Below are positions 20,911 through 44,570 of a stretch of DNA of 64,000 nucleotides, in pieces. The DNA comes from Eledone cirrhosa. Taxonomy: Eukaryota. Where the stretch lies: assembly GCA_964016885.1 (NCBI GenBank), contig OZ024744.1, forward strand, positions 61,814,001 through 61,878,000, in the 5' to 3' direction. The translations under genes and the position numbers were made by a program. The notes beneath the pieces were generated by a model that searched no databases, was not told the origin of the DNA, and saw only the letters and a program-made list of their open reading frames with translations. The first letter of the stretch is position 1, and every line of letters starts with the position of its first letter.

Positions 20911-21627
20911 TAAGTATGTATGTATACGTACATACATATATGTATACAGACGTACAGTAGCATGCATATATATTTATATATACATACAGGTACACATACA
21001 TATATGCACGCATCAGTTTAGCGGACGCTTATTATAACGCCGCTTTGTTCGTTTGTCAACAAACTGAACACATATATGTATGTACGTATACATACATACT
21101 TACATTTAAGTAAGTGCCATACTAAGAGCGAGAAATGAAATTTCGTTTTCATTTTTTTCAACTTATCGTTTTCGGTATGCCTGACCGATTTAACTCACTC
21201 AATATGCAAATTAGGCTGCTCAGCCGTTAATTTTCATAAGGAAAGTATATACTTTCGAACGTTCAACTATCTGGCAGATGGGTAAACGGTGCTGATGATA
21301 GCTAACAAGCTTGAAACTAGTACATCGTTCCTGTGTCGGTGTTGAACAAAAAGGTGACGTGGTTGTCTTAACACCGTATGGCATAAATTCAGGCTGTTCA
21401 GTTTGTTGACAAACGAACAAAGCGGCGTTATAATAAGCGTCCGCTAAACTGATGCGTGCATATATGTATGTGTACCTGTATGCATATATATATATATATA
21501 TATATATATATATGCATGCTACTATACGTCTGTATACATATATGTATGTACGTATACATACATACTTACATTTAAGTAAGTGCCATACTAAGAGTGAGAA
21601 ATGAAATTTCGTTTTCATTTTTTCAAC
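20911..21627. mobile_element. Diverged retrozyme-family member: inverted piece (20911-21070) plus ~1.2 forward units, period 466 bp
   Basis: catatatgtatgtacg at 21071 and 21537; shares atgcaaattag, taattttcata, gatgggtaaa and the hammerhead with the 469-bp unit. Confidence 0.85.
21285..21329 (+). ncRNA. Minimal type I hammerhead ribozyme
   Basis: AACGGUG-CUGAUGA-U AGCU(AACA)AGCU U-GAAA-CUAG-UA-CAUCGUU; GUA site; U.U at the base of stem II. Confidence 0.8.
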
Positions 21628-23115
21628 TATATATATATGAATATATATATGAATATATATATATATATATATATATGAATATATATATATATATAAATAC
21701 ATATATATATATATATATGAATATATATATATATATATATATAAATATATATATATATATATATAAATATATGAATATATATATGAATATATATATATAT
21801 ATATATATAAATATATATATATATATATATAAATATATGAATATATATATATATAAATATATATATATATAAATATATATATATATATATGAATATATAT
21901 ATATATGAATATATATATATATGAATATATATATATATATATATATAAATATATATATATATATATATATATATAAATATATGAATATATATATATATAT
22001 ATATATAAATATATATATATATATATGAATATATATATATATATTCATATATATATATATGAATATATATATTTATGAATATATATATATATATATGAAT
22101 ATATATATATACATGAATATATATATATATATATATGAATATATATATATATATGAATATATATATATATATATAAATATATATATATATATGAATATAT
22201 ATATATATATATGAATATATATATATATATGAATATATATATATATGGAATATATATATATATATATGAATATATATATATATATATGAATATATATATA
22301 TATATGAATATATATATATATATGAATATATATATATATATATATATATATGAATATATATATATATATATATTCATATATATATATCTATATATTCATA
22401 TATATATATATATTCATATAGGAACCAGTAAGACCCCGACAGCTGAGCTCAAGCCGTTTCGACGGCTAATTCTGGACTATATATGAATATATATATATAT
22501 ATATATATGAATATATATATATATATATATATATATATCTATCTATATTCATATATCTATCTATCTATCTATCTATCTATATCTATCTATCTATCTATCT
22601 ATCTATCTATCTATCTATCTATCTATCTATCTATCTATCTATCTATCTATATCTATCTATCTATCTATCTATCTATCTATCTATCTATCTATCTATCTAT
22701 CTATCTATCTATCTATCTATCTATCTATCTATCTATCTATCTATCTATCTATCTATCTATCTATCTATCTATCTATATCTATCTATCTATCTATATATAT
22801 ATATATATCTATATATATTCATATATATATATATATCTATATATTCATATCTATATATATATATATATATATATATATCTATATATTCATATATATAAAT
22901 ATATATATATATATATATGTAGATAAATCTACCAAGAGTTTACGGTAGTGTCCAATCCGTATGAAGAACTCAATGTATTCCGGATATCATGGAAAGAAGA
23001 GATGTAATGAAAAATCACTTTCGGTGAAAGATATATATATATATATTCATATATATATATATCTATATATTCATATATATATATATATATATATATATCT
23101 ATATATTCATATATA

Positions 23116-23393
23116 TATTGTTATATTTGGGGAGGGTCATATTTGCGTAATATTGCCAGAATTAATAACAGAACACACTCACTGTTTGGTTGGTTTTCGC
23201 TTCTTGCTAGTTAATGGCAACATTGAGGACCGAGTAAGTTAGATCGCAGATATAAAAGACAGCGAGAAGCGAAAACCAACCAAACAGTGGTGTGTTCTGT
23301 TATTAATTCTGGCAATATTACGCAAATATGACCCTCCCAAATATAACAATATCTGTTTCGACACACGATTTCATATAAAAAACCTCGCTAAAC
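23116..23393. mobile_element. Fold-back element related to 8536-9097, in opposite orientation
   Basis: Arms 23116-23205 and 23262-23352; shared end attgttata.ttgggagggtcat; tail tctgtttcgacacac..ctcgctaaac resembles the reverse complement of 8536-8580. Confidence 0.85.
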
Positions 23394-26300
23394 TATATAT
23401 ATATATATATCTATATATTCATATATATATATATATATATATATATACATATATTCATATATATATATATATATATACATATATATATATATACATATAT
23501 ACATATATTCATATATATATATATATATATATACATATATATATATATACATATATTCATATATATATAGATATATATATACATATATACATATATATAT
23601 ACATATATTCATATATATATATATATATATATATATATATATACATATATTCATATATATATATATATATACATATATTCATATATATATATACATATAT
23701 ACATATATATATATATACATATATTCATATATATATATATATATATATATATACATATATTCATATATATATTCATATATATGAATATATATTATATATA
23801 TATATATATATGAATATATATATATATATATATATATATGAATATATATATATATGAATATATATATATGAATATATATATATATGAATATATATATATG
23901 AATATATATATATATGAATATATATATATGAATATTATGAATATATATATATATATATATATATATATATATATATATATATATATATATATATATATGA
24001 ATATATATATATATATATATATGAATATATATATATATATATATATATATATATATATATATATGAATATATATATATATATATATATATATATGAATAT
24101 ATATATATATATATATATATATATATATATATATATATATGAATATATATATATATATATATATATATATATATATTCATATATATATATATATATATAT
24201 ATATATATATATATATTCATATATATATTATATATATATTCATATATATATATATATATATATATATATTCATATATATATATATTCATATATATATATT
24301 CATATATATATATATATGTATATATATATATATATATACATATATATATATATATATATATACATATACATACATATACATATATTCATATATATACATA
24401 TATATATATATATATATATATATACATATATTCATATATACATATTCATATATATATATATATGTATATATATATATATATATACATATATATATATATA
24501 TATATACATATACATACATATACATATATTCATATATATACATATATATATATATATATATATACATATATTCATATATATATATATATACATATATACA
24601 TACATATATATATATATATATATACATACATATACATACATATACATATATTCATATATATACATATATATATATATATATACATATATTCATATATATA
24701 TATATACATATATATATATATATACATATATACATATATATACATATATATATATATATATATATACATATATTCATATATATATATATATATATATACA
24801 TATATTCATATATATATATATATATATATTCATATATATATATATATATATATATATATATATATATATATATATATATATATATCATATATATATATAT
24901 ATATATATATCTATATATATATATATATATATATATATATATTCATATATATATATATATATATATTCATATATATATATATATATATATATATATATCT
25001 ATATATATATATCTATATATATATATATATATATATATATATCTATATCTATATCTATATATGAATATATATATATATATATATATATATATATATATAT
25101 ATCTATATATTCATATATATATATATATATATATATATATATATATCTATATATTCATATATATATATATATATATATATATATATATGAATATATGAAT
25201 ATATATATATATATATATGAATATATATATATATATATATATTCATATATATATATATATATGAATATATATATATATATATATATTCATATAATATATA
25301 TATATTCATATATATATGAATATATATATATATATATATATGAATATATATATATATATATGAATATATATATATATATATATATTCATATATATATATA
25401 TGAATATATATATATATATTCATATATAGATATATATATATTACATATATTCATATATATATATATATATATATATGTATATATATATACATATATTCAT
25501 ATATATATATATATATGTATATATATATATACATATATTCAATTATATATATATATATATATTCATATATATATATATATATATATATACATATATATAC
25601 ATATATTCATATATATATATATATATATATACATATATTCATATATATATATATATATATATATATATATATATACATATATATACATATATTCATATAT
25701 ATATATATATATGTATATACATATATTCATATATTCATATATATATATACATATATATATATATATATACATATATATATATATATATACATATATATAT
25801 ACATATATATATATACATATATATATACATATATATATACATATATATATATACATATATATATATATATACATATATATATATATACATATATATATAT
25901 ATACATATATATATATATACATATATATATATAATATACATATATATATACATATATATATACATATATATATATATATACATATATATATATACATATA
26001 CATATATATATATACATATATACATATATATACATATATATATACATATATATATATATACATATATATATACATATATATATATATATACATATATATA
26101 TACATATACATATATATATATATATATACATATATATACATATATATATACATATATATATATATACATATATATATACATATATATACATATATATATA
26201 CATATATATATATACATATATATATATATATATACATATATATATACATATATATATATATATTCATATATATATATATATACACATATATATATACATA

Positions 26301-43352: not shown

Positions 43353-43422
43353 ATGTATTTTATCTGATGAGGACGTACTGAAAAATCAACACAGTACCTT
43401 CGAAATATATATAATAAAACAT
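43353..43422 (+). ncRNA. Type I hammerhead ribozyme with AU-palindromic stem III
   Basis: UUUUAU-CUGAUGA-GGA(C)GUACUG..CAGUAC(C)UUC-GAAA-UAUAUA-UA-AUAAAA; AUA site. Confidence 0.8.
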
Positions 43423-43509
43423 ATATTTTGATCATGTGAATGTCTTCATTTATTAATATTCTGAATAATATATGAATATATATATATACTGTATATATAT
43501 CGTTTTCCC

Positions 43510-43831
43510 ATTTTGCAAAAAACGATGCTATAAACTTTTCTGGGTGGGAAATGAAAATGGAGACTTGTCCTAAATAGTACTACTGTGACAATAATATCCA
43601 CTTACGCACCCCAACCTGGACTGCCTGGCATTATAAAAGACAGATTCTATGAGTCGCTAATGCTCACTACCTCCCAAATAACCGACAGTAACTACATAAT
43701 TATTGCTGGCGACCTAAATGGTCATGTTGGACAACAGTGTGACGACTATGACGGAATCCATGGAGGCTACGGGTTTGGTACCAGAAATGAGGAAGGCTTC
43801 AGAATTCTGGAATTCTCTGACGCAAATAACC
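43510..43831 (+). mobile_element. RTE endonuclease-region fragment
   Basis: ORF 43585-43878 (STYAPQPGL..GDLNGHVG..GYGFGTRNEEG) is homologous to the APE domain of the full-length RTE. Confidence 0.85.
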
Positions 43832-44570
43832 TTTGCATATCGAGCGAGTTAGTCAGCCGGGCGTACCAAAAACGATAAATGGAAAAGAATGAAATGAAAT
43901 TTCATTTCTCACTCTTAGTACGGTTTGTCAGTGTTGAACAAAAAGGCGATGATGGTTGCCGAACACTGTACGGCTTAATTCGAGCTGTTTGTTTACAAAC
44001 AAACTGAACATTATAATAAATGTTCGGTAAACCCATACGTACATATATATATGTGTGCATGTATGTATATATATACATACTACTGTATGTCTGTATACAT
44101 ATATGTATGTATAGATACTTACAGTTAAGTATCAGCCGTACTAAGAGTGAGAAATGAAATTTCATTTTATTCTTTTCCATTTATCGTTTTCGGTACGCCC
44201 GGCCGACTAACTCACTCGATATGCAAATTAGGCTGCTCAGCCCTTAATATGCATAAGGAAAGTATCTACTTTCAAACGTTCAATCATCTGACAGGAAGGT
44301 ATACGATGCTGATGATAGCTAATAAGCTTGAAACTAGTTCATCGTTCCTTTGTCAGTGTTGAACAAAAAGGCGACGATGGTTGCCGAACACTGTACGGCT
44401 TAATTCGAGCTGTTTGTTTACAAACAAACCAAACATTATAATAAATGTTAGGTAAACCCATACGTACATATATATGTGTGCATGTATGTATATATATACA
44501 TACTACTGTACGTCTGTATACATATATGTATGTACATATATACATAGATACTACTGTACGTCTGTATACA
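43832..44570. mobile_element. Third retrozyme-family member: inverted piece (43832-43923) plus ~1.5 forward units, period 425 bp
   Basis: tttgtcagtgttgaac at 43924 and 44349; clearly homologous to 21071-21627. Confidence 0.85.
44303..44345 (+). ncRNA. Minimal type I hammerhead ribozyme
   Basis: ACGAUG-CUGAUGA-U AGCU(AAUA)AGCU U-GAAA-CUAG-UU-CAUCGU; GUU site. Confidence 0.8.

Follow-up and report, generated by a model that had tools for sequence, protein, structure and literature searches.

Non-LTR (long terminal repeat) retrozymes, described from coral, mussel and axolotl, consist of tandem non-coding units of low GC content that carry one type I hammerhead ribozyme each (PMC7229834). Penelope elements were named there as candidate helpers on the basis of shared features, and the parts covered describe neither insertion ends nor a promoter; a 2026 preprint on vertebrate retrozymes proposes the same relation to Penelope (bioRxiv 10.64898/2026.07.22.740005). 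Within the parts covered, both sources leave open the identity of the helper enzyme of animal retrozymes and the role of circles as template. Hallmarks of Penelope elements themselves are a tail confined to one end, partner copies in inverted orientation and a preference for microsatellites (PMC8557442). We analysed a stretch of 64,000 nt from the cephalopod Eledone cirrhosa (assembly GCA_964016885.1, contig OZ024744.1, positions 61,814,001 to 61,878,000), hereafter the window, to which all plain coordinates refer. It holds related tandem units of 466 bp (A), 469 bp (B) and 425 bp (C) that share the features just listed, and these are likely members of a high-copy, non-coding non-LTR retrozyme family with a conserved type I hammerhead. 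We consider it probable, from the organization of the DNA, that this family carries its own promoter, cuts itself to monomers and is reinserted by a Penelope-type reverse transcriptase (RT) and endonuclease. Neither the retrozyme class nor the covariation nor the U.U pair is a novelty, and the Penelope link has been proposed already; what the genome would add is evidence on helper, promoter and template. Our literature search found no cephalopod retrozyme, although the supplements of PMC7229834 and of the 2026 preprint, which lay outside its scope, may list this host.

The original prediction held that the three units are homologous, that an unchanged hammerhead core is flanked by stems with compensatory changes, and that selection acts on ribozyme structure, self-cleavage probably being needed for propagation. 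Alignment bears out the homology: B is 62% identical to A (E 3e-27) and 63% identical to C (E 4e-37), and A and C are 78% identical (84.5% over 284 aligned bases) and thus close relatives, so that the window holds approximately two independent lineages. Stems I and II, CUGAUGA, GAAACUAGU and the cleavage triplets GUC, GUA and GUU all read as claimed in the three window units. The core is unchanged among these three but not genome-wide: of 56 A/C loci, 43 have C and 13 have U at N7 of CUGAUGA. Stem I has 6–7 bp followed by a UA bulge and a further helix, stem II has 4–5 bp with an AAYA loop, bulge and loop being conserved, and helix III of only 1–2 bp is reduced to the palindrome ACUAGU. CUGANGA, GAAA and a NUH triplet are joined by three helices with helix I open, as in type I hammerheads; a U.U pair at the base of helix II, as in A and C, is already known from the axolotl retrozyme HHR_Amex2 (PMC7229834). 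Among the 150 of 161 Rfam matches listed, B appears as Hammerhead_HH9 at 31.8–38.9 bits (E 2.5e-6 to 4.6e-4), under the gathering score of 52, and A and C are absent. The monomer RNA of B, the only unit folded whole, has a predicted energy of −163.8 kcal/mol (z −12.75) that none of 100 shuffles equalled, and self-pairing of ACUAGU in trans is predicted at −4.8 kcal/mol; a short helix III of this type is a dimer-type architecture (PMC4209133). No reading frame of at least 100 aa lies over the units, apart from microsatellite-driven frames at A and an RTE remnant that ends at the left edge of C, and GC content in 2-kb bins is 0.25–0.35, where retrozymes are non-coding with GC below 50%. Every testable feature of non-LTR retrozymes is present in the A/B/C family.

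The family is very large. Across the 3.0-Gb genome, 23,712 matches to the exact core pattern were counted, where a reversed control gave four; the octamer landmark has 24,449 against none in its control, and octamer plus core 35,135 against two; a generic hammerhead-like pattern gives 131,592 against 1,425, overlapping matches counted in. Arrays of 15–31 pure units exist. A 121-bp piece of B has 40 listed matches, every one of them 100% identical and scattered over many places on several chromosomes, which marks the 469-bp subfamily as very young. Ten or more additional hammerhead families were seen (G000:C1:1-4.9 Mb; L186-L205). One of them (L191), in tandem units of 311 bp, has an ACGCGU palindrome and a TATA-like box but lacks the octamer.

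The evidence on mobilization comes from 136 arms (copies in one orientation) of which both ends are visible, after exclusion of two duplicate loci and of the microsatellite-like pieces of L147. Sixty-one arms stop at a long 3' end directly after a terminal hairpin and pyrimidine tail, 53 at a short end approximately 55–70 nt earlier, and 22 elsewhere; inverted pairs combine one long with one short end in 27 of 38 cases (p 6e-6), and (TA)4 adjoins 102 of the 114 fixed ends, compared to a background of 18%. Inverted 5'-truncated partners, a tail at a single end and a microsatellite target are therefore all found. Most arms (121 of 136) are shorter than two units, and arms regularly span intact hammerheads and promoter elements. 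The 5' ends are scattered, with three of 136 within 5 nt of the cleavage site where 3.3 are expected, and no subfamily switch point lies at that site in the arms typed, so direct traces of cleavage were not found. The inverted B arm at 40153-40804 leaves the 469 haplotype for a different B subfamily somewhere between unit positions 9 and 19, a switch of a kind seen in no other arm typed.

A candidate helper family is represented in the window by the 5'-truncated Penelope-like element at 29259-31050. Its 30 loci show the same kind of ends (15 long, 21 short, one other), and copies with open reading frames (ORFs) of 713 aa exist. The candidate helper copy L039 has an RWK-like motif (RWR), a CxCX5C linker, CxxC and YRDD motifs and a (TA)n target, with NKT in L039 and DKT in L043 and L038; the protein has no match in Pfam or PDB, and its Atlas neighbours carry GIY-YIG and RVT_1. 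By motifs and (TA)n target the family appears to belong to the Hydra clade. Locus L206 (2000-5010) holds a direct fusion of a B arm with a 5'-truncated member of a second Penelope family, approximately 45% identical to the first; the whole lies in one inverted insertion bounded by (TA)n, and we read this single case as a template switch. Penelope coding matches to one query protein occur in 11 of 99 overlapping stretches, from several families and at no consistent position. Since no Penelope ORF consistently adjoins the units, they behave as passengers and not as pseudo-LTRs; with that one query protein, no consistently adjoining RT and GIY-YIG ORF and hence no parent Penelope was found. The helper family itself ends in a hammerhead-like motif (30854-30877, 20422-20445, and on the minus strand 20120-20143 and 42942-42965), in which CAGAAGA stands for CUGANGA, a fixed U4A core variant with U.U at the stem II base (L031-L060); its commonest form occurs 19 times, on the sense strand, in the 30 loci. 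A TA-type microsatellite of approximately 5.6 kb at 21628-27238 has Penelope 3' ends nested inside.

The landmark atgcaaattag, one of those that the three units share, is likely a promoter element, judging by its position and its counterparts in host genes. In this genome three distinct U6 promoter types carry the same 12-mer at −77 to −79 with TATA at −30 (the third octamer A being T once), and the other U6 matches examined lack it at that place, bar array copies in which an insertion displaces it. In each of the 15 U1/U2 upstream regions listed, TATA lies near −30 and either TCAGT or TCAAT at −56 to −58, and the octamer is missing. Such a small nuclear RNA (snRNA) promoter layout, with a proximal octamer near −78 in U6 and TCAGT/TCAAT near −57 in U1/U2, is unusual in itself (L209-L212; L254-L280; L293-L312). 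Families A, B, D, E, F and H have, 17 nt after the octamer start, a YCA(G/C) motif that resembles a proximal sequence element (PSE) and, 24–29 nt beyond it, a TATA-like box. This matches the spacing of U1/U2. Exceptions are one F copy, which deviates, and the window's C copy, in which the TATA is changed. The octamer-to-TATA spacing is 40–43 in the units compared to 46–48 in U6. With the U1/U2 spacing, predicted starts coincide with a pyrimidine-A step in A and C (−16 relative to the core), in B (−28) and in E (−8), and miss such a step by 1–2 nt in D, F and H. We infer an snRNA-type promoter, probably transcribed by RNA polymerase II (Pol II). The octamer and TATA-like box also lie within predicted hairpins of the monomer, so a role in the RNA is possible as well. 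Our literature search found no retrozyme promoter or octamer reported for animals.

Beyond A/B/C, the hammerhead families D, F, G and H have TATGCAAAT(T/G)AG at a distance of 81–108 nt upstream of the core. Their loci were picked on the octamer motif, and these families do not align with A/B/C outside microsatellite-like parts. The octamer was rejected as a general feature of hammerheads here: among loci picked on the core only, it is in place solely in the A/B/C group, three F copies being truncated, rearranged or changed at the octamer and the others, including the 311-bp family, lacking it. A match at L184 arose by chance from an F copy on the opposite strand, and those at L181 and L182 are doubtful. 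Upstream of the ribozyme of family F (L174-L176), a repeat made up of the octamer and an ATCAGT-like motif stands three times in tandem.

Selection on the ribozyme was assessed through alleles at 56 A/C loci chosen by the octamer or upstream DNA and not by the core. Rare alleles fall in core and palindrome as often as elsewhere (14/836 compared to 247/12,967, p 0.79), whereas common alleles avoid them, occurring at none of 15 such sites and at 48 of 237 others (p 0.038), an indication that selection acts before insertion and not after it. Common alleles do occur at free positions, namely N7 and H17 in A/C and H17 only in B. A G at position 17, which breaks the NUH rule, is found in 124 of 23,712 cores, and of 100 listed cases 83 lie in one array on C3 and 17 elsewhere; its near absence from dispersed copies supports selection in copies that spread. 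Thirteen distinct variants show double changes in 6 of 16 stem pairs, with 92% of cells paired, and under random placement of 12–13 changes, retention of 10–11 of 12 pairs has P 0.0005–0.03; the claim of compensatory change is upheld to this extent, although five of the six double changes trace to the single split between B and A/C. DNA contigs from three runs contain 24 variable places, all outside core and octamer, where approximately 1.5 would be expected to fall, a weak result that we do not count. The predicted selection on ribozyme structure is thus supported, for spreading copies, by the allele test, the rarity of G17 and the stem changes, and the data support a scheme in which inserted copies decay neutrally and spreading lineages keep the ribozyme.

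The C3 array (G000:C3:12271900-12324500; L313, L314) is of A type and comprises approximately 100 units over approximately 52 kb, with G17 in all 28 units sampled and a normal long 3' end in (TA)n. Local expansion accordingly needs no intact cleavage site, so the idea that self-cleavage is needed for propagation may apply to dispersal but fails for local growth. Relative to other A units this array has four fixed differences; each is A>G when read on the strand of the ribozyme, and one affects the cleavage site. Across 58 multi-unit loci A>G makes up 7 of 21 locus-wide private changes compared to 24 of 211 single-unit changes (p 0.012), and at L121 four of five locus-wide private changes are A>G, in both arms. 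Such clustering suggests adenosine-to-inosine (A-to-I) editing of an RNA before reverse transcription. Editing has been raised as a possibility for mussel retrozyme RNA (PMC7229834), and our literature search linked no retrozyme circles to ADAR editing, bar one unrelated review sharing the terms.

Features of the A, B and C units and of Penelope-like copies in the window (Table 1)
Feature	Position	Strand	Remarks
A, inverted partial copy	20905..21070	-	stops at short 3' end in (TA)n
A, 1.2 copies of 466-bp unit	21064..21629	+	stops at long 3' end in (TA)n
A, octamer 12-mer	21203..21214	+	PSE-like TCAGC 17 nt after start, TATA-like box 26 nt further; inferred promoter role
A, type I hammerhead	21285..21329	+	U.U at stem II base; triplet GUA; predicted cut after 21322
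A, terminal hairpin landmark	21592..21615	+	directly before long 3' end
B, inverted arm, 1.4 units	40153..40804	-	mosaic of two B subfamilies; hammerhead 40448-40492, octamer 40575-40586
B, 4.2 tandem copies of 469-bp unit, 99% alike	40803..42774	+	stops at long 3' end in (TA)n
B, octamer 12-mer of one unit	41406..41417	+	also at 40937, 41875, 42344
B, type I hammerhead of one unit	41500..41544	+	triplet GUC; predicted cut after 41537; also 41031-41075, 41969-42013, 42438-42482
B, terminal hairpin	42732..42759	+	before long 3' end; z -4.05 for copy at 41305-41367
C, inverted partial copy of 425-bp unit	43832..43923	-	
C, approximately 1.5 copies of 425-bp unit	43924..44570	+	
C, octamer 12-mer	44220..44231	+	TATA-like box with one changed base
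C, type I hammerhead	44302..44346	+	U.U at stem II base; triplet GUU; predicted cut after 44339
Penelope-like, inverted pair of 3' ends	20036..20613	.	same family as 29259-31050
Penelope-like, 5'-truncated element	29259..31050	+	GIY-YIG-type ORF end and 3' region with long tail, in (TA)n; candidate helper family
Penelope-like, 3' end	42838..42967	-	same family as 29259-31050; across (TA)n tract from B array

In the life cycle that we propose, an snRNA-type promoter (octamer, PSE-like motif and TATA-like box) would start Pol II 8–28 nt before the core, and the polymerase would read through tandem units. Unit-length RNA would be set free by the hammerheads, which probably pair into dimers by way of their ACUAGU palindromes, and would be closed to a circle by a host ligase. 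The circle would serve as template for a Penelope protein of the Hydra clade, which would nick (TA)n and, with priming at the U-rich tail, go round one or more times, yielding tandem copies that contain the promoter, and arrays may also grow locally at the DNA level, where an intact cleavage site would be unneeded. A bolder reading, which we offer tentatively and think rather doubtful as a whole, is that of a young self-promoting retrozyme superfamily, in which at least five diverged lineages captured the snRNA promoter grammar of the host (a U6-type octamer with U1/U2-type spacing), ADAR-edited circles are copied by Hydra-clade Penelope, and A-to-I change at the cleavage site switches the ribozyme off and marks every unit of an array. 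If true, the proposed retrozyme cycle would stand recorded from end to end in a genome, the identity of the helper included. The genome is in any case a direct test system, offering a young 469-bp subfamily, open 713-aa Hydra-type ORFs and precise insertion ends, besides a promoter that can be compared with host snRNA genes and, in G17, a natural cleavage-site control.

Several results count against this proposal. The monomer's active fold lies 10–14 kcal/mol above the predicted minimum, so that activity needs dimers or helpers, and of nine dimers of Xenopus retrozymes eight failed to cleave in vitro (bioRxiv 2026.07.22.740005). The PSE-like match extends to only 3–5 of five letters and is absent in families G and I. 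In B alone (15 loci) the avoidance by common alleles is not significant (0/15 compared to 26/241 sites, p 0.19), and the descent of most double stem changes from one event reduces their weight. The A>G test was post hoc, the G17 array having been found by searching one of its four changes, and the asymmetry between A>G and T>C is not significant (49 compared to 29, p 0.09; 7 compared to 3, p 0.35). That array and two G17 dimers grew in tandem without an intact cleavage site, so tandem homogeneity is no proof of rolling-circle copying. On the helper's side there is only the one retrozyme–Penelope chimera at L206, and no 3' sequence was found to be common to the units and either Penelope family.

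Some of the same observations invite other explanations, of which two retain a role for Penelope. The units might be mobilized from a linear, multimeric read-through RNA that the hammerhead merely trims, with no circle as template. Fixed 3' ends with scattered 5' ends fit linear templates equally well, the predominance of arms under two units suits them, and long arrays could be put down to local expansion of DNA. Efficient cleavage of such an RNA would, however, pile 5' ends at the cut site, where no excess was seen, and arms regularly hold intact hammerheads and promoters; circles are, moreover, the main RNA form of coral, mussel and axolotl retrozymes (PMC7229834). We regard the linear model as unlikely. 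Derivation of the units from an autonomous Penelope element not found here, as its pseudo-LTRs or 3' remnants, would account for the Penelope tail and inversion pattern and has a precedent in Xenopus, where retrozymes are related to pseudo-LTRs (bioRxiv 2026.07.22.740005). It sits badly with the scarcity and inconsistent placement of Penelope coding sequence around the units (for the one query protein), with arrays of 15–31 pure units and with the different sequence in which the 30 Penelope loci end, and we judge it very unlikely.

The remaining two would dispense with this machinery, and to each we attach next to no probability. A SINE-like (short interspersed nuclear element) unit that RNA polymerase III (Pol III) transcribes from a U6-type promoter, as a linear monomer ending at a T run and then retroposed, is suggested by the identity of the octamer 12-mer to that of U6 and by the fact that in A, B, C and F the first run of at least four T comes close to the long end. 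T4-free bodies are common in dinucleotide shuffles (P 0.17–0.82), however, the octamer-to-TATA spacing departs from that of U6, and the A and C junctions extend past the T run. We rejected the Pol III monomer model because insertions contain the promoter and cross three to four T runs per unit. An ordinary satellite, spread at the DNA level or retained for a host function, with the hammerhead conserved by descent only, would explain the G17 array on C3 and recombinant haplotypes in L063 and L129. It does not predict that common but not rare alleles avoid the core, that copies at dispersed sites have fixed 3' ends, inversions and junctions in (TA)n, or that identical copies lie on several chromosomes, and as an account of dispersal it is largely refuted. 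A retrozyme with Penelope as its helper remains our preferred reading of the family.

The window contains other elements besides. An open LINE (long interspersed nuclear element) frame of 1161 aa lies on the minus strand at 33568-37053, with endonuclease, RT and, within the C-terminal part, a PHD finger, which we take by resemblance to be of RTE type; the left end of the C copy also sits in a LINE remnant. A split Tc1/mariner-like transposase remnant at 38995-40044 (+) has a weak HTH_Tnp_Tc3_2 match. Inverted-repeat elements of approximately 340–370 bp occur at 44570-44940, abutting the C copy, and at 43132-43471. A dispersed repeat of 330–360 bp (664-1021, 16751-17113, 55255-55581), with weak tRNA matches at 938-995 and 55258-55315, is likely a SINE.

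Compared with the retrozymes of PMC7229834, the family has the same strongly self-paired monomer, thousands of copies and a short palindromic helix III that suggests cleavage as a dimer. Its units of 425–469 bp are at or above the stated range of 150–450 bp; for those retrozymes expression and circles were demonstrated. The evidence from Xenopus consists of co-occurrence and similarity to pseudo-LTRs (bioRxiv 2026.07.22.740005); here no parent pseudo-LTR was found, and it is the insertion signature that is shared. With Hydra-clade Penelope elements (PMC8557442, PMC4209133) the units have in common 5' truncation, an inverted partner, a tail at one end, (TA)n and a type I hammerhead, but they lack an ORF, their tail of approximately 55–70 nt exceeds the 30–40 bp given in PMC8557442, and their hammerhead has an extended, bulged helix I in place of the minimal form. 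In layout they resemble newt satellite 2 and the SINE-like repeats of schistosomes, in which a promoter is followed by a hammerhead in each tandem unit. Newt satellite 2 is reportedly provided, according to a 1994 paper, with an octamer and PSE promoter. Its transcripts appear to be Pol II products (PMC6765202). The schistosome repeats have a Pol III promoter, unlike the probable Pol II type of the units described here.

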